From the IMG/VR virus record IMGVR_UViG_3300010885_033832, positions 31,417 through 95,416 of that record: DNA of 64,000 nucleotides. One strand, 5' to 3'. Both the position numbers and the translations under genes were made by a program. This DNA is from a virus. This document shows, in pieces, positions 3,001 to 64,000 of the stretch; the first letter of the stretch is position 1; each line of letters starts with the position of its first letter. The notes beneath the pieces were generated by a model that worked only from the letters and a program-made list of their open reading frames with translations, did not search any database and was not told the DNA's origin.

Positions 3001-6000
3001 GAGCTTCAATGTTTGTGATGAACTCTTCACGTCGGTTGGCGTTGATTGCAACGCGACGTCCAGCAGAGGCATATGTAGGTAGGACACCTAAGAGTGCGGT
3101 GTTAGTGGCTTCGATGTGCATGTCAACTTGTTCAGTTGGCATAGAAGTGCCGCCAGCGCGCTTGATAGCCGCTTGAATTTCAGGAGTCATCTTTTTCAAA
3201 ACTTCGGGGGGAAGAATTCTAGAGAAGATTTTTCCCTTGGGTGCTTCGTCTGACTTGCCAGAGGTAGTACGAAGCGGCTCACCCATCAACCACAGTGGGA
3301 CGTTCGCCACATCAACGAGTGCCTGGGGGGAGCGGTATGTTTTGGTAAGACCATTCTTGACGTCAGCGACGCTATCTGCTTGATCGTAGAACTTGAACAT
3401 CTGGTTGACAGCACCACGGAACGCGTACAGAGCTTGTCGGTTGTCACCGACTACAACCACTTGCACAGCTAGCCCATCTTCGTTCGGCATAGCAAGCTGG
3501 TTTACTAGGTCGATTTGTGCAGCGTTAAGGTCCTGAGCTTCATCAACAAACAGAGTGTCTGCTGTGGAACCTCCAGGGACTTTTTTCACAACATTGGCAA
3601 GGCCCGATAACTGCCAAATCTTTGACAACATAGAGTTAGTGACTGGAAGCGGGGAGAAGGGCTGTCCATCGATAGCGCTAAACGCCAGCTTATTCTTGAT
3701 GGTGATAGGGACCGTTATATTTTCGTCCCACATCCTCTGTGCAATTTTGACATAGTCCCATGCAAGCGCCTCATCTTTAAGAACCTTTTTTCTTAGAGCT
3801 GAGCTCATGTGTGGGAGCAGGTGATCTAGTGTTATTTTTCTATCTGCTGTAGACGCAAATCCATTCGCAATACCGCTCATGAGGTCGCTAAAAATAATAT
3901 CAGAAGTTATTTTGTCATCTTTACTGATTACTACTTCTTCAATACCGTAAAGCTCGGTGGCCTCATAAGCAGACATAAATGAGGTGCTATCTAGTTTGGC
4001 GGACCTTCCGTCTTTGGCTCCCATCGACAAGTCGAGCTTGGCGTTGAGAGTGGCTCGTTTTGTTGCTTTGAGGTCAGAGTCAACGTAGGTTGTGTTGGGG
4101 TCGTCGAGTGTCATTTCTACCCCGAAGAAACCCAAGCTGTCCAAGGTTCGAGCCTGTACGTTGGCTCCAAATCGAGCAGCGGCTTCCTCGGCAGTGCTAC
4201 GGTTGAACGCGGCCAAGAGTATCTTGTGTTCGGGGAACATATCGGACAACAGTTTGAGCGTACTGGTTTTTCCGGTACCAGCGCGGGCGACAATCACCAT
4301 ACTCTGGTTCTGACCAAAGTCGTTGATGATCTTCAGCTGTTGCTCACTGGGGGTAATACCAGTCTGTTGGTAGACCTGCTCAGCGGTATACGTCCGGGCC
4401 TTGTAGCCACCCACTTTTCCTCGACGAATCTTGGAGAAGTTGTCAGGCTCGCCAGACTTGCTCACACGCGAGGCGGCCCCAGTACCAGTTGAATTTTGCT
4501 GATCCGACAGGGCGTCGCGGAGGCTTTGCTTCTTATCGGAGATGAAGATCATGCCAGAGTCAATCTCGGAAATGAGCGCACTCTTTTGGGCATCGCTAAT
4601 CGGGTCTTCTTCGGTGAGATCGGTTTCAGGGGAGACACGGTACCACTGGCCGTCTTCACCCTTGGCGTAGGTGTCCAAGGAGACCTGACGAGCGCCCTTA
4701 GTTGACTCTCCATCTGCGCCTGCGATTACGTCGCGGGAAATACGAGCACCTGTTGGAGCCACATCGAAGATGTCCGCCGACGTTACGCGGGTACGAGAAG
4801 CAGACTGGTTACGGTCCTGAGAAGTGACCGGACGCTCAGAGTTGGTAAGGCTCGGAGTGAAAGGAGCGCGCGAACCGCTAATCTCAGACTGACCGTCGGC
4901 TGCATCAAGAGCGTCAAACACCTCAGACGATGAATACGAACGCGTGTTGTCGGAGACTCCAGCATCGTCAGCCGCGTACCACAGTCCGTCGGATCCCCGG
5001 ACAAAGTTGTCTACTCCGTTGGATACTATATCTCCAGCAGTTGCTGAGTTGAGATCGTCAACGGTAGAGATAGACATATCAATCTCATCGGGCAGCGCTG
5101 CACCAGCGCCCTTACCTTCTTCAGCATCTTCTTGTTTAGGTGCTCGTCCTCGGTCAGGACGGCGGCCCGATGCTTCGGTAAAGGCAGCGATGACACGCTG
5201 GACGGTTTCTTGTCGTTCTTGCGCCTTAGCAATTCGCTCGCTGTACCCATTGAGGATTTCGCGCTGTTCGTCCGTCAGGTACTGCTCGTCAGGGTTGTCA
5301 AGCGAGTTGGCGTATTCGCTCTTCTCGTTGTTTAGTTCCCCGAGAAGTTCTTGGTACTCACGCCACTTACGGAGTGCCTGTTTGCGTCGACGAGCAAACT
5401 CCTCAATGGGGATACTGAGGAAGTCGCGGTAGTTAGTCGACTCTGTGTAATCTTCTTCGTCCTCGCTAGCAGCAGAAGGCCTCGATCCGTCGCCATCACT
5501 CGGCTCGGGCTCTGGTTTGCTTGGCTCGCTGGGTAGGGCACCCGGACCCTTGGGTGGTGGGTTACCTTCAAGAGGGAGGAATGGACCAGACGGTCCTCGG
5601 CCATCAGGCTGTCCGTCTTGAGAGTCGCTTTTACCCTTCTTTCCCAACTCAATGAGTGGGATAAGTCCGCCAAAGAATTCGATGTGCTTGATGTAACCAA
5701 CCATGTCGTTTTCGTCGTACATCTTGCGAATCTGGACAGAGCGCTTATACGCCCAACGATCCCAGAGTGCCCGCTCATTGGGGTCCAGTCGCTGAAGGAA
5801 CTTGTACGAGTCAGTGACAAAGTCTGAACGCTCTTTTTCGGCGCGCTGAAAGTTAGCGAAAGCTGCGGCTTTTTCAGAGGCAGAAGCATCGGGATTTTTC
5901 TGAGCTTCGCGCGCATCAAAGTAAGCACGGCGGACACGATCTTCAAGGTAGTCGATGTTTGAGATGATGTCGTCGACCTTGAGAGGCATGAACTTGGTAT

Positions 6001-24957: not shown

Positions 24958-25278
24958 TTATACGAGGTAGTCCGATAGGTCAGACTCGAGGGCTGGGCGT
25001 GGCTTCGCGCCGACAATTGTCTTGACGACTTCTCCGCCAACGAACACCTTCATCGTCGGAATCGAGACAACACCATACGCGGTGGGTGTCTCGGGATCCT
25101 CTTCGATGTTCAGCTTCACGATTGTAAGGCTGGGGTATTCATCGGCGATAGCGTCAAGTACTGGACCAACGGCGCGGCAGGGGCCACACCATTCAGCCCA
25201 GAAGTCAACGAGGACCGGACCCTCGGCGCTGAGCACATCGGCGTCGAAGGTCGAGTCGGTTGTTTTTCCAGCGGGCAC
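24958..25278 (-). CDS. trxA: Thioredoxin
   Basis: VLVDFWAEWCGPC...SIPT. Confidence 0.97.
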   Translation of the reverse strand: MPAGKTTDSTFDADVLSAEGPVLVDFWAEWCGPCRAVGPVLDAIADEYPSLTIVKLNIEEDPETPTAYGVVSIPTMKVFVGGEVVKTIVGAKPRPALESDLSDYLV

Positions 25279-31100: not shown

Positions 31101-31589
31101 CTACCAACTTGCTCGGTAGGTGAAGTCACAATCGGCGAGTGACTTGTTGGCGAGTATCTGCGAGAGTTCGTCACGAGTGGTTTCCAAGTCCTTCCAGTAC
31201 CACTCGTCAATCTCGGTCGAACCGAAGAAGAAGCCAGCCTGTGGTGGCAGGTGTTCTTCCGCGATTGCCGTTCGGTTTGCTTCGCTCGCGCCGAGAATGA
31301 TGTCGCACAGGTTTCGCAACGCTTCCAAGCCGTCACGCGGTACGCCGATTTCTTGGCACTCGTCAAGCCCATCAGCGAAGTTGCTCACGAACCATTGGTG
31401 AATGGCGTTCGCTTTCCGCCAATACATTACCGTCACAGCGAGGGTCGCAGACGGCGAGTATTCGGGCAGTATCGCAGGGTCGAACCCTGCCGTTTCCAGC
31501 ACACTCGCAAACTGCTCGCGGTCTGCTTCGGGTCGGTGTTCCCAACCCGATAGGTACTTCTCGGCAGATAGATACATATCCAGTCCCAT
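31101..31589 (-). CDS. Conserved phage protein (MGLDMY...YWRKANAIHQWF family)
   Basis: Recognisable widespread phage motif; AAAGGA SD. Confidence 0.85.
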   Translation of the reverse strand: MGLDMYLSAEKYLSGWEHRPEADREQFASVLETAGFDPAILPEYSPSATLAVTVMYWRKANAIHQWFVSNFADGLDECQEIGVPRDGLEALRNLCDIILGASEANRTAIAEEHLPPQAGFFFGSTEIDEWYWKDLETTRDELSQILANKSLADCDFTYRASW

Positions 31590-59567: not shown

Positions 59568-59693
59568 TTCGCTACCACTCCTACCACCGCCAGAAGGCCC
59601 AGTAGTTCTCCCGCTGCTGGGCCTTCACTTTTAATTTTTGAATGTAGAAAGTGCGAATCTAGAGTGTAATAATTACACATAGATAGATGCCAG

Positions 59694-59741
59694 ACACAAT
59701 TTGTTCGGGTGCTGAACGCCGTGCTACACTATATCTACGCG
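59694..59741 (+). promoter_or_regulatory. Possible degenerate tandem NrdR boxes
   Basis: ACACAATTTGTTCGGG and ACACTATATCTACGCG start 32 bp apart upstream of the nrd operon. Confidence 0.35.
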
Positions 59742-59800
59742 TCGCCCAAAATGTCAGGAAAACGCTTTTCTCGCTACTACACAGAAGAAGGAGATGGCCA

Positions 59801-59887
59801 ATGGCCCCTCAAAATAAAGATAATGTCGATGGCTATTACGTCCCGCAGGACCCAATGGATCTCCTGCAGTGTGACTCCTGCCAGTAG
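59801..59887 (+). CDS. 28-aa peptide resembling the NrdA C-terminal redox tail (PQDPMDLLQCDSCQ)
   Basis: AAGGAGA SD; terminal CxxCQ; directly upstream of an nrdA that lacks C-terminal cysteines. Confidence 0.8.
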   Translation: MAPQNKDNVDGYYVPQDPMDLLQCDSCQ

Positions 59888-59975
59888 TTCACGACTAACC
59901 CCGCGACAACCCGGGCCCCTGCGATAGAGTAGAGGCACCGGGTTTTCTCTCCCTACACAACGAAGAAAGACTGCA

Positions 59976-62900
59976 ATGAACATCAACGTCACCAAGCGTG
60001 ATGGCCGCCAAGAGCCATTCGACGCCAACAAGATCAACCTCGCTATCGAGCGGAATACCCGAGAAGTTCTCGCGGGAACCCCTGACGAGGATCGCATCAC
60101 TGAGTTTGTCACTCAGATTGCCACCGAGCTCTCCCTCACACTTTTCAATGGCATCACGACCGAACAGCTCGACGAAGCCGTCATCCAGGTTGCTCTGCAG
60201 AATGTCAAGGACGATCCAATCTACGATCAGATTGCATCCCGTCTTCTTCTCGGCACTATATATAAGAAGGTATTCAAGGGAGCGCCTGACTTCTTCAGTC
60301 TTCAGAATGCACACGAGTCATTCTTCCCCCACAACATCCGACGCGGAGTTGAGGAAGGTCTGTACGATGCTCGATTTACTGAGGTCTACGATCTTGATCG
60401 TCTTGCTTTTGTGCTTGACCCAGAGCGGGATAAGCTTCTCAAGTACACCGGACTCGTCACCCTCCGCAATCGCTATGGCATTACCGCCCGCGACGGACAG
60501 TTGCTCGAGACTCCCCAAATGTTTTGGATGCGCGTGGCGATGGGGCTCTCGCTAAACGAGGAGAAGCCTAACGAGTCAGCCATTCTCTTCTACGAGAAAA
60601 TGTCGAAGCTCGAGTACCTCGGTGCTGGATCAACTCTGGTCAACGCTGGAACATCGTACCCACAGCTGTCCAACTGCTTCGTCCTCGAAATGCAGGATGA
60701 CATCGAGCACATCGCCAAGACCGTCCGCGACGTCATGTGGCTTACTAAAGGTACGGGAGGTATCGGCCTGTCCGTTACCAAGCTCCGCGCCCAGGGTAGC
60801 CCAATCCGATCCAACAACACGTACTCGACCGGACCGATTCCGTTCATGCACACCATCGACTCGGTCCTCCGCGCAATTAGCCGTGGAGGAAAGAAGTTCG
60901 GGGCGCTCGCGTTCTATATGGAGAACTGGCACCTCGACTTCCCTGAGTTCCTTGAACTCCGCAACAACTCCGGCGACCCCTACCGTCGTACCCGCACCGC
61001 CAATACGGCTGTCTGGATTTCCGACGAGTTCATGAAGCGAGTCCAGAATGACCAAGACTGGTACCTCTTTGACCCTCTCGAAGTTGCTGACCTCAACGAG
61101 CTGTACGGCTCAGAGTTCTCCGCGCGCTACGCTCAGTACATCGAAGATGCAGAGGCTGGAAAGCTCCACCACTTCCAGAAAATCTCGGCCAAGGAACAGT
61201 TCCGCCAGATCCTTATCACTCTGCAGGCTAGTTCACACCCGTGGTTGACGTGGAAAGACACGATCAACCTTCGCGCGCTCAACAACAACACCGGTACGAT
61301 TCACTCGTCCAACCTCTGCGTCGCCCCCGAAACCCTCATCCTGACCGACAAGGGACACCTCCCTATTGGGCCGCTTGAGGGCAAGAAGGTAAATGTCTGG
61401 AACGGCGAGGAGTTCTCTACCGTTGAAATTAAGAAGACGGGCGAGGACCAAGAGCTCATCACCGTTACGCTCGACAGCGGAACCGAACTCGAGTGCACCC
61501 CGTACCACAAGTTCTACCGCGAGAACCGCAACGGAAAGATTGAAGAAGTTCGCGCTGGTGACCTCAAGTCTGGCGACAAGTTGATCCGTCGTCAGTTCCC
61601 CATCATTGAAGGTGGTACTAAAGAGATTAGCGGTAACCTTGCTTACACGCACGGTTACTACCTCGGAGCCGAGAAGTTCCACCGCGAGGCAAAGGTCAAC
61701 ACCACTTCGCGTCAAGCGTTCTTCTCGTACCGTCACGTCTTGCTCAAGGAGATAAAGTACAAGTCGGCTGACTCGCTGAACGTCGTGTTCCCCGACGAAA
61801 TGCCTCAGAAGGACTTTGCTCCGACCGCCAACCACACCCTCAAGGATCGCCTTGCATGGTTGGCTGGAATCTTCGACGCTGGACTCGAGAAGCGTAAGAG
61901 CCGTATGGGAGTCCTCCCAATTTGGAGCCTTTACTCGGACGATGCTGACTTCCTTGTCCGCGTCAAGTATGTTCTTCAGACGCTTGGTGCTGATGCCAAG
62001 ATTAAGAAGAACAATGACGACATGACCAAGCGCGGTAACTCGATGCGAATCACGTACCCCACGCTGTCAGCTCTGGTTGAACTCGGCCTCCCCATCAAGC
62101 GCGTCGAACTTCCTACTCTTCCCATCAAGCGTCGCTGGCTCCGCAACCCACAGGTTGTGTCGGTCAAGAGCAATGGTCGCATCTCGGACACCTTCTGCTT
62201 CACGGAGCCCCTGAAGCACATGGGAGTCTTCAATGGAATCCTCACCGGACAGTGCACCGAAATAACGCTCCCACAGGATCGAGATAACACTTCTGTCTGC
62301 AACCTTGCCTCCATCAACCTCCCTCGTCACTTGACGGCAGACAACAAGATCAACCTTGAGAAGTTGCAAGAGAGTGTCCGTCTCGCAGTTCGCCACCTCG
62401 ACAACCTGATTGACATCACCGTTTCCAGTGTTGATGAGGCAGACAACTCCAACAGCCAGAACCGCGCAATCGGACTTGGTGTGATGGGACTTACCGATGT
62501 CTTTGAGCGCATGGGAATTGCCTACGACTCAGAGCGTGCCCACGAAATCACCGACAACATTGTTGAGTTTGTTTCGTACTACGCAATCGACGAATCGACT
62601 GAGTTGGCACAAGAGCGTGGCTCTTATCCCAACTTTGAAGGCTCTGGCTGGTCCAAGGGAGTGGTTCCTATCGACACCATCAAGACAACGGAAGCCGACC
62701 GCGACTACGTCATTGACGTACCGCTGACGGCTGAGATGGACTGGGACTACATGAGGGAGAAGGTCAAGGAAGGTATACGCAACGCGACCCTCATGGCCAT
62801 CGCACCGACGGCATCGATCGGTCTCGTCGCGGGAACGACCCCGGGTCTCGACCCTCAGTTCTCACAGATCTTCTCGCGCTCTACCTCCAACGGTAAGTTC

Positions 62901-63338
62901 CTTGAGGTCAACGTAAACTTGGTCAACGAACTCAAGGGTCTCGGACTCTGGGAAGACGTCAAGGATGAAATCCTGCGTTCACAGGGTGACATCCAGAACA
63001 TTGAATCAATCCCCGACTCGGTCAAGGCGGTCTACAAGACTTCCTTCCAGCTCTCGCCTTACGCGTTCCTCAAGGTCGCAGCACGGGCGCAAAAATGGAT
63101 CGACCAGGCCATCAGCCGCAACATGTACCTCGAGACCCGAGACATCGACGAGATGGAAGAAATCTACACTTACGCATGGCAAGCGGGCGTCAAGACGACG
63201 TACTACTTGCACACTAAACCACGTCACACCGCCGAGCAATCAACGGTGAAGGTCAACAAGGCTGAAGCAATTTCTGCCGCCACTACACCCGAATCAGGTG
63301 CCCCTCGTAAGGGCTTCGGATTCAAGTCAGCTAACTAA
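59976..63338 (+). CDS. nrdA: Class I ribonucleotide reductase alpha subunit with ATP cone and intein
   Basis: VTKRDGRQEPFD ATP cone; QLSNCF; SSNL[intein]CTEI; VCNLAS; AIAPTAS; GVKTTYYL. Confidence 0.97.
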   Translation: MNINVTKRDGRQEPFDANKINLAIERNTREVLAGTPDEDRITEFVTQIATELSLTLFNGITTEQLDEAVIQVALQNVKDDPIYDQIASRLLLGTIYKKVFKGAPDFFSLQNAHESFFPHNIRRGVEEGLYDARFTEVYDLDRLAFVLDPERDKLLKYTGLVTLRNRYGITARDGQLLETPQMFWMRVAMGLSLNEEKPNESAILFYEKMSKLEYLGAGSTLVNAGTSYPQLSNCFVLEMQDDIEHIAKTVRDVMWLTKGTGGIGLSVTKLRAQGSPIRSNNTYSTGPIPFMHTIDSVLRAISRGGKKFGALAFYMENWHLDFPEFLELRNNSGDPYRRTRTANTAVWISDEFMKRVQNDQDWYLFDPLEVADLNELYGSEFSARYAQYIEDAEAGKLHHFQKISAKEQFRQILITLQASSHPWLTWKDTINLRALNNNTGTIHSSNLCVAPETLILTDKGHLPIGPLEGKKVNVWNGEEFSTVEIKKTGEDQELITVTLDSGTELECTPYHKFYRENRNGKIEEVRAGDLKSGDKLIRRQFPIIEGGTKEISGNLAYTHGYYLGAEKFHREAKVNTTSRQAFFSYRHVLLKEIKYKSADSLNVVFPDEMPQKDFAPTANHTLKDRLAWLAGIFDAGLEKRKSRMGVLPIWSLYSDDADFLVRVKYVLQTLGADAKIKKNNDDMTKRGNSMRITYPTLSALVELGLPIKRVELPTLPIKRRWLRNPQVVSVKSNGRISDTFCFTEPLKHMGVFNGILTGQCTEITLPQDRDNTSVCNLASINLPRHLTADNKINLEKLQESVRLAVRHLDNLIDITVSSVDEADNSNSQNRAIGLGVMGLTDVFERMGIAYDSERAHEITDNIVEFVSYYAIDESTELAQERGSYPNFEGSGWSKGVVPIDTIKTTEADRDYVIDVPLTAEMDWDYMREKVKEGIRNATLMAIAPTASIGLVAGTTPGLDPQFSQIFSRSTSNGKFLEVNVNLVNELKGLGLWEDVKDEILRSQGDIQNIESIPDSVKAVYKTSFQLSPYAFLKVAARAQKWIDQAISRNMYLETRDIDEMEEIYTYAWQAGVKTTYYLHTKPRHTAEQSTVKVNKAEAISAATTPESGAPRKGFGFKSAN
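61317..62252 (+). mobile_element. 312-aa intein with LAGLIDADG-like endonuclease, ending in Gln
   Basis: CVAPETLILT start; LECTPYHKF block B; WLAGIFDAG; GVFNGILTGQ/C end at the active-site Cys. Confidence 0.93.
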
Positions 63339-63356: not shown

Positions 63357-64000
63357 GTGGGCATCCTCGGAACCGGAATCCAAGATGGACTCCTCCTCAA
63401 ACCCGTTCGATACCAGTGGGCGATGGACCTGTACAACCAGGCCGTTGCGAACACATGGTTCCCCAATGAAATCCAGCTCGGTGAAGATATCGCCGACTTC
63501 AAGAAGATGACGGACGAAGAACAGCAAGCAATCACGTTCCTCATGTCGTTCTTCAACCCCTCGGAACTGATCGTCAACAAGGCACTTGCCTTTGGCGTCT
63601 ACCCGTACCTCAACGCTGCGGAGGCGCACTTGTATCTCGCCAAGCAGATGTGGGAAGAAGCAAACCACTGCATGTCGTTCGAGTACATCCTCGAGACGTT
63701 CCCCGTAGATCGTGAAAAAATCTACGCTCAGCACGTTGATCACCCGGCAATCGCTGCCAAGGAAGAGTTTGAGGTCAAGTTCATCAAGCGAATGGCCGAG
63801 CGCAGCCTCGACATCACCACCACCGAGGGCAAGCAGGACTTCGTTCGCAACCTCGTTGCGTACTCGGTCATCATGGAAGGTATCTGGTTCTACACCGGGT
63901 TCATGGTCGCCTTGTCGTTCCGCCAGCGCAACCTGCTCCGCAACTTCGGTTCGCTCGTTGACTGGATTGTTCGTGACGAGTCGCTCCACCTCAAGTTCGG
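63357..64000 (+). CDS. nrdB: RNR beta subunit, class Ic (R2c) type; partial
   Basis: WFPNEI...FFNPSELIVN...EEANHCMSF...MEGIWFYTGF...RDESLH. Confidence 0.93.
   Translation, partial: MGILGTGIQDGLLLKPVRYQWAMDLYNQAVANTWFPNEIQLGEDIADFKKMTDEEQQAITFLMSFFNPSELIVNKALAFGVYPYLNAAEAHLYLAKQMWEEANHCMSFEYILETFPVDREKIYAQHVDHPAIAAKEEFEVKFIKRMAERSLDITTTEGKQDFVRNLVAYSVIMEGIWFYTGFMVALSFRQRNLLRNFGSLVDWIVRDESLHLKF

Follow-up and report, generated by a model that had tools for sequence, protein, structure and literature searches.

The stretch of DNA analyzed here, hereafter the window, covers the final 64 kb of an IMG/VR virus record of 95 kb (IMGVR_UViG_3300010885_033832, positions 31,417 to 95,416), and the DNA runs that contain at least half of its sampled words are labeled as freshwater metagenome; the one RNA run contains 4% of these words. 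The window carries an nrd operon for a class I ribonucleotide reductase (RNR), the first gene of which is a 28-codon open reading frame (micro-ORF) with a good Shine-Dalgarno (SD) sequence. Its product, a putative detached redox tail of the enzyme, is the subject of this work. On the plus strand, the order of elements is a terminator-like hairpin, a promoter-like site, the SD sequence, the micro-ORF, another hairpin, nrdA and nrdB (Table 1). An initial annotation, made from the letters alone, had pointed to an SD-led micro-ORF just upstream of nrdA, and the ORF was found there as described, 88 nt from nrdA.

Each turnover of a class I RNR leaves a disulfide between two active-site Cys residues of NrdA. 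This disulfide is reduced by a mobile Cys pair at the C-terminus, which is recharged in turn by thioredoxin or glutaredoxin. The C-terminal Cys pair is regarded as integral to the large subunits of class I and class II RNRs; C754/C759 of Escherichia coli NrdA and the CxxC tails of eukaryotic R1 are covalent examples. Tail mutants of E. coli R1 are active with dithiothreitol, not with thioredoxin.

The NrdA encoded by the window is of the NF005101 (PRK06539) type, scoring 1427 bits against the NCBIfam model (cut-off 988), and contains the Pfam domains ATP-cone, RNR all-alpha, barrel and intein. Unlike a canonical class I NrdA, which bears the Cys pair at the C-terminus of the same polypeptide, the phage protein (...TTYYLHTKPRHTAEQ...GFGFKSAN) has no Cys at all among the 43 residues that follow the conserved TTYY up to its end, ...RKGFGFKSAN. 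The initial annotation had read this terminus correctly.

A family of short peptides ending in C-x-x-C-Q

Relatives of the micro-ORF were detected on 84 viral contigs by a scan of IMG/VR that was confirmed with tblastn. In the 80 viral loci kept, the product is 22-33 aa long and ends in C-x-x-C-Q (once C-x-x-C-E), with the stop codon immediately after. A profile built from 31 diverse members retrieved 427 clusters at E<=1e-3 among 1.84 billion representative proteins; nearly all of them are 25-60 aa long and match at the extreme C-terminus, and the longer ones that were inspected proved to be upstream extensions by the gene caller. Across the family, the length of the detached peptide ranges from 22 to 40 residues, and the consensus is ..DGYxVP[IQ]DPMDLLQC[DE]SCQ-stop. 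The window peptide has every invariant column, with VPxDP[MA]D followed by C-x-x-C-Q and the stop within the 20-45 aa that define the family. It scores 59 bits against a family profile in which it is itself included, and it co-occurs with a Cys-less NF005101 NrdA as its relatives in bacteria do. No family in Pfam, NCBIfam or the PDB matches the peptide.

In the 15-codon core, 85 distinct DNA versions differ pairwise by 0.18, 0.12 and 0.54 at codon positions 1, 2 and 3, respectively, third positions varying three to five times more than the others. The dN/dS of the core is ~0.14, a value in which constraint is inflated somewhat, since the members were collected with a protein pattern. The peptide gene is genuine and evolves under purifying selection. 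A longer frame of 66 aa, opening at 59687, was rejected as the real gene because family-wide conservation begins only near the 28-aa start. Comparison of this longer frame with longer proteins revealed no fused forms, a weak negative given that only five candidates shared words with it. One protein of 101 aa (P0257) joins a glutaredoxin-like domain (PF00462, 25 bits), apparently without a CxxC active site, to a C-terminal tail peptide; either a natural fusion of redoxin and tail or an artefact of gene calling could explain it.

With tblastn, an ORF of this type was also detected in Pontimonas phage phiPsal1 and Clavibacter phage CMP1, whose records leave it unannotated, and in Pseudanabaena phage Pan2. 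In the cyanophage Pan2 (ON968453.1, locus L004), a family-like micro-ORF occupies 4989-5069 (MDDFDTIDGFACPNDPADLVSCESCQ) and the record annotates an overlapping, wrong frame, Pan2_27. The expectation that annotation would normally miss the micro-gene was thus borne out. No RNR gene lies within 4 kb of any of the 80 related viral loci. Five phage genomes with the peptide, three of them complete (phiPsal1, CMP1 and Pan2) and two at least 92% complete, likewise contained no RNR barrel domain. Viral copies are situated in the terL-portal interval (the largest group), after holin/endolysin genes or after an exonuclease gene. Such positions show that the peptide is of use even where the phage has no RNR; the link of the peptide to RNR comes from host loci, not from phage loci. 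In the largest viral group (L005-L048 and similar loci), the peptide gene stands alone between terL and portal, and next downstream is a fused prohead protease-major capsid protein.

Association of the peptide with Cys-less NrdA in Microbacteriaceae

The enzymes most similar to the phage NrdA are encoded on the chromosomes of Microbacteriaceae, among them Microcella, Aurantimicrobium, Glaciihabitans and Salinibacterium. No Cys follows the YY pair in 119 of the 120 closest homologues. The lone exception (P0039, 854 aa, from ENA) reads through from the tail region, with a frame shift, into the micro-ORF downstream, ending ...YEVPIDPMDDLHCESCQ, and represents either an assembly indel or a natural fusion. 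The active-site residues C227, C441 and C456 (numbering of host locus L088), together with YY, are invariant in 42 aligned members of the Cys-less clade, indicating that the need for re-reduction persists. Furthermore, four genomes of 1.6-1.8 Mb contain no match to PF02867 (RNR barrel) other than the Cys-less NrdA, and NrdD (class III) was not found in them. As the only RNR catalytic subunit found in these small genomes, the Cys-less enzyme must turn over in vivo.

Scanning 185,579 species genomes with the peptide profile yielded 22 bacterial loci, in 18 of which the micro-ORF lies between nrdA and an nrdB of the class Ic type. At L088, for instance, it starts 5 nt past the nrdA stop and ends 70 nt before nrdB, and GGGGGAG precedes it in many host loci. 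The arrangement that had been suspected in host genomes is therefore present, but the order differs, being nrdA-peptide-nrdB in hosts and peptide-nrdA-nrdB in the phage.

To place these loci in a wider frame, 201 Microbacteriaceae genomes drawn evenly from the family were scored for both genes. The peptide and an NF005101 NrdA were found together in 93, the peptide only in 1, the NrdA only in 0 and neither in 107. The predicted co-occurrence of tail-less NrdA with a CxxCQ micro-ORF thus held in 93 of 94 genomes with the peptide and in 93 of 93 with the NrdA. Fisher's test gave p ~1e-57, a figure inflated by shared ancestry. Peptide-positive genomes (94/201) usually have 2-3 copies each, and in at least 46 genomes one copy lies 30-170 nt downstream of nrdA. 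In 300 other Actinomycetota genomes, the search found no peptide and no NF005101 NrdA above the cut-off.

The sample of Actinomycetota also provided 24 more distant NrdAs, here called sisters, of which 16 were fetched and 8 had a readable C-terminus. All eight carry a fused tail that ends in C-E-[SA]-C-Q-stop, once in C-E-A-C-D. Upstream of this ending they have a third Cys and an acidic stretch that includes Pro (e.g., ...ACSIDSPDCESCQ, ...TCSPDDVECEACQ and ...ACSLENPESCEACQ, each followed by the stop). The likeness of the peptide to the tails of related actinobacterial NrdAs, noted at the outset, is hence general among the resolved sisters (CESCQ, CEACQ or CEACD before the stop in 8/8). Host peptides end ...VPIDPMDELQCESCQ, the last five residues being those of the nearest sister NrdA, and some members of the peptide family retain an upstream 'AC[PS]' at the matching place, e.g., ...GGYACPIDPMDELQCESCQ. 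The peptide does not stand beside tailed NrdAs equally often, a pattern that the initial annotation had named as a refutation; the tailed sisters come from the 300 other Actinomycetota genomes, in which the peptide was not found. Fission of a long disordered tail would be the simplest history for the origin of the peptide.

Host genomes also have further peptide copies away from the nrd operon. One type of stand-alone copy, MDNDNETVGGYAVPVDPMD[ML]LQC[DE]SCQ, has a strong SD and its own terminator, and it is this type that the phage peptides, including that of the window, most resemble. In the nrd-linked host peptides, the N-terminal part is rich in Ser/Thr and resembles a segment of disordered linker. 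Upstream of the stand-alone copy there is an element of the form GACACGCC-(3-6 nt)-CAC[TA]A[CG]AT...~25 nt...TATATAGTG, and the same element, with no gap, occurs upstream of host nrdA. When the pattern GACACGCC(N0-8)CAC[TA]A[CG]AT...TATATAGTG was searched, it was found exactly twice per genome in five of five genomes, before nrdA and before the stand-alone copy, and the reversed control gave 0. The shared element, which may resemble tandem NrdR boxes, suggests that the stand-alone copy is co-regulated with the nrdA operon. Operon position, phyletic pattern and this shared cis-element bind the peptide to the Cys-less NrdA clade.

The stand-alone host copy lies near MaoC and murB genes. A functional link to them was set aside, and the proximity is taken as a conserved chromosomal position. 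In two contigs from metagenome-assembled genomes (MAGs) of Frigoribacterium and Aeromicrobium (L102 and L106), copies MNKEKTTETSKDEPYVVPIDPMDELECDSCQ lie away from nrd, beside an SSB-like gene and a weak STAND-NTPase match, a context that may be a prophage or mobile element.

Proposed role of the free peptide and alternatives to it

We propose, with a probability of roughly three in four, that the product of the 28-codon gene is a free peptide, the C-terminal redox tail of a class I (Ic-type) RNR, which would act in trans. In the Cys-less clade, NrdA would have kept its active-site Cys and lost those of the tail, while the final 15-20 residues of the ancestral tail, an acidic stretch with Pro that ends in C-x-x-C-Q, would be made as a diffusible peptide of 22-40 aa from a micro-ORF that is presumably translated. 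The free peptide would enter the NrdA active site and take over the disulfide, and it would then leave as a disulfide itself, to be recharged by thioredoxin. Thioredoxin, peptide, NrdA and NrdB are all encoded by the phage. Its thioredoxin, already listed in the initial annotation as the possible recharger, is a genuine one by the Pfam match and WCGPC, although its strand had to be corrected to minus; it may be considered a candidate reductant of the peptide. Phages with the peptide only could use it to increase turnover by the RNR of the host. The evidence supports regarding the gene as a detached, duplicated and virus-borne version of the known RNR redox tail, with a putative redox function.

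A further proposal, which we hold more tentatively and would rate a little below even, is that RNR turnover is set by the concentration of this diffusing, co-regulated peptide of ~25 aa, and that phages without RNR control host deoxynucleoside triphosphate (dNTP) synthesis through their own copy. If so, no smaller auxiliary metabolic gene would be known, and the peptide would represent an enzyme part of a new, tunable and exchangeable kind.

The proposed tail has much in common with the covalent tail of class I enzymes, namely a C-x-x-C-Q at the C-terminus, an acidic Pro-containing stretch, the same enzyme partner and the same presumed job. It differs in having a gene and a start of its own, often in 2-3 copies per genome, and in being carried also by RNR-less phages. 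Full-text literature searches returned no description of a separately encoded class I RNR tail, and the only precedent found for a detached tail is the split class II enzyme NrdJa/NrdJb of Pseudomonas aeruginosa, in which the Cys-bearing C-terminal part used for terminal reduction is a separate gene adjoining that of the catalytic subunit (PMC5704485, PMC4520616). NrdJb is a folded, Cys-rich zinc-finger domain of 150-220 aa in a B12-dependent class II enzyme. The peptide, in contrast, has ~25 aa (28 aa in the window), two Cys and no domain match, and its partner is an oxygen-dependent class I(c) NrdA with NrdB; it does not belong to the NrdJb type. Small redox partners that supply electrons to RNR are also known in nrd operons or fused to their products, such as NrdH-redoxin and the glutaredoxin fused to NrdB in Facklamia ignava (PMC6187632). 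These are thioredoxin-fold proteins that reduce the tail, whereas the peptide, without a fold match, would be the tail itself. A thioredoxin-fold redoxin has ~75-110 aa and a CxxC near the N-terminus of helix 1; the window peptide has 28 aa, its CxxC is C-terminal, and it matches nothing in Pfam or NCBIfam.

Several observations weigh against a free redox tail. The structure prediction that the initial annotation had called for, performed with residues 100-835 of a host NrdA and its own 32-aa peptide, scored 0.50, above its best control (0.00), with runs agreeing in at least 51% of contacts and a partner pLDDT (predicted local distance difference test) of at least 52. Among 80 solved complexes 58 reach the mark used, and among 110 mismatched pairs 2 do; at scores of 0.60 or less, the numbers are 7 of the 80 and both mismatches. 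The prediction thus favors the pairing weakly, and no interface is reported. Searching PDB chains, including RNR large subunits with tails, with the peptide profile gave no match at E<=10, and the likeness to fused tails therefore rests on about five identical terminal residues plus composition. In addition, the Cys-less NrdAs (P0002-P0120; 63206-63338 in the window) keep a low-complexity tail of roughly 45-75 residues past YY, with one or two conserved [RK]KGFG / GFGFGG motifs near its end that are absent from the fused-tail sisters, indicating that the tail was remodeled and not simply cut; these motifs might dock the free peptide or a redoxin. The genomes in the co-occurrence analysis are relatives within one family, and their agreement may reflect few independent events. 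Lastly, most phage copies lie far from any RNR gene.

Considering these points, other roles were weighed. The peptide might serve the class Ic RNR in another way, delivering or buffering Mn/Fe for NrdB or regulating alpha-beta assembly. It is tied to an operon with a Mn/Fe class Ic-type NrdB, which the host gene directly precedes, CxxC motifs can bind metals, and the weak NrdA complex prediction would also fit. Yet its terminal C-E-S-C-Q is identical to the fused tails of sister NrdAs, precisely the terminal element that the partner NrdA has lost, and no metal-chaperone family in Pfam, NCBIfam or the PDB matches it, so we regard such a role as unlikely. We give slightly less credit still to the idea that the phage copies are decoys that occupy or drain host RNR or thioredoxin, for example by redirecting reducing power. 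That most of them are unlinked to RNR and lie in late or lysis modules would suit a decoy. However, phage peptides keep both Cys and the whole core and resemble the stand-alone copy of the hosts, and the window peptide heads the phage's own nrdA-nrdB operon, where a decoy would harm the phage enzyme.

The tail might also not be free in hosts, if a ribosomal frameshift near the end of nrdA fused the micro-ORF to NrdA as an out-of-frame 3' exon. The peptide lies in the -1 frame of nrdA, which is often open far upstream (open frames of 800-938 aa), and P0039 is just such a fusion. But long open -1 frames are to be expected in high-GC genes, and the micro-ORF has its own ATG, preceded by GGGGGAG. 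Moreover, the phage gene is located upstream of nrdA, unlinked host copies have their own SD and terminator, some phages have only the peptide, and the hidden Markov model search recovered it almost exclusively as products of 25-60 aa. All this makes a frameshift fusion very improbable. Finally, a chance open frame in a regulatory leader could be suspected from the very short length of the micro-ORF and from the fact that annotation pipelines do not call it; hundreds of homologues, a fixed stop position, variation at third positions and several unrelated genomic contexts refute it.

If the free redox tail is confirmed, it would bear on a step that is poorly understood, namely how the disordered tail finds the active site and is recognized by redoxins, and a free, synthesizable tail peptide would make re-reduction directly testable. 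Much remains unknown about the C-termini of RNRs, according to a 2022 survey of RNR extensions (PMC9669993). The free tail would be an example of an essential part of an enzyme becoming detached and duplicated, coming under separate regulation and being traded by viruses. It would also mean that about half of the sampled Microbacteriaceae have an essential gene that annotation systematically overlooks, and that the peptide-only phages carry a hidden nucleotide-metabolism gene.

Further features of the phage and host loci

The features of the window are collected in Table 1. Megablast of the phage region against the phage collection gave no match.

Table 1. Features of the window around the nrd operon, and the phage thioredoxin gene
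Feature	Position	Strand	Details and basis
Thioredoxin gene, WCGPC	24958..25278	-	Pfam Thioredoxin, E=1.4e-27
Terminator-like hairpin followed by a T-run	59593..59626	+	14-bp stem with 8 GC pairs, tail ACTTTTAATT; consensus scan only
Promoter-like site ahead of the micro-ORF	59645..59673	+	TAGAAA-17-AATAAT with TG; consensus match only
Two ACAC-(A/T)AT-type boxes	59693..59742	+	Starts at 59693 and 59725, 32 bp apart; read by eye
Shine-Dalgarno sequence AAGGAG	59788..59793	+	7 nt 5' of the micro-ORF ATG
Micro-gene, putative detached RNR tail peptide of 28 aa	59801..59887	+	MAPQNKDNVDGYYVPQDPMDLLQCDSCQ-stop; ORF, homology, conservation
Stable hairpin in the spacer from the peptide gene to nrdA, followed by UUUUCUCU	59905..59947	+	Fold
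nrdA, class I RNR large subunit, NF005101/PRK06539 type	59976..63338	+	1120 aa; NCBIfam, Pfam
Intein in NrdA, residues 448-759	61317..62252	+	312 aa; Pfam, NCBIfam, alignment gap versus intein-less host NrdA
nrdB, 5' part, running off the window	63357..64000	+	Class Ic type; Phe at the radical-Tyr position

The intein of the phage NrdA is inserted between SNL and C-TEI, directly before the catalytic Cys, which is the +1 residue, and the alignment restores the motif SNLC-TEI across it. Cys1 and the +1 Cys are present, whereas the C-terminal end is G-Q and not the usual His-Asn. Its N-terminal splicing region scored 35.1 bits against TIGR01445 (cut-off 24.5) and 33.1 bits against Pfam Intein_splicing, below the cut-off of 35.8, and the match to LAGLIDADG is weak. 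An intein-bearing NrdA that is 96% identical to that of the phage was found on another JGI contig (P0001).

The best PDB match of host NrdB is R2c of the Chlamydia trachomatis class Ic RNR (1syy, E ~1e-73), the closest solved NrdB, with Phe aligned on Phe at the position of the radical Tyr. The NrdB of the window has the segment ...EEANHCMSFEY... and, 31 residues upstream, NPSE (read by eye), as in host NrdB. At the sequence level, Phe in place of the radical Tyr and Glu as the first metal ligand thus place it in class Ic. The comparison with C. trachomatis covers NrdB only, the enzyme of Microbacteriaceae and the phage being marked by one ATP-cone and a putatively detached tail. Phage nrdB is 99% identical in amino acids over 214 aa, and 90% in DNA, to the nrdB at 6144-6786 of L090, from an uncultured freshwater Microbacteriaceae MAG, but the nrdA exteins of the two are only ~72% identical in DNA. 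This suggests a mosaic or a recent exchange and points to the host lineage.

The terminator-like hairpin at the start of the locus may close a transcription unit upstream of the phage nrd operon. The two ACAC boxes bear a weak resemblance to the operator-like element that host genomes have at both the nrdA operon and the stand-alone peptide gene. With a weight matrix made from the host sites, they rank 101st and 46th of ~128,000 window positions, which is suggestive and not significant. As they score only modestly against the host matrix, a shared host-type operator in the phage is not claimed. Between the peptide gene and nrdA, the 91-nt spacer folds at -27 kcal/mol (z = -2.7), and 1 of 200 shuffles was equally good; the hairpin in it is possibly a partial terminator or attenuator. 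A comparable hairpin is found in host nrdA leaders (L088 at ~3270-3300, and the same place in L085-L104), where a conserved GC hairpin with a T-run, e.g., AGCCCGGAATTCCGGGCTTTTT, lies between the operator-like element and the nrdA start and looks like a leader terminator or attenuator.

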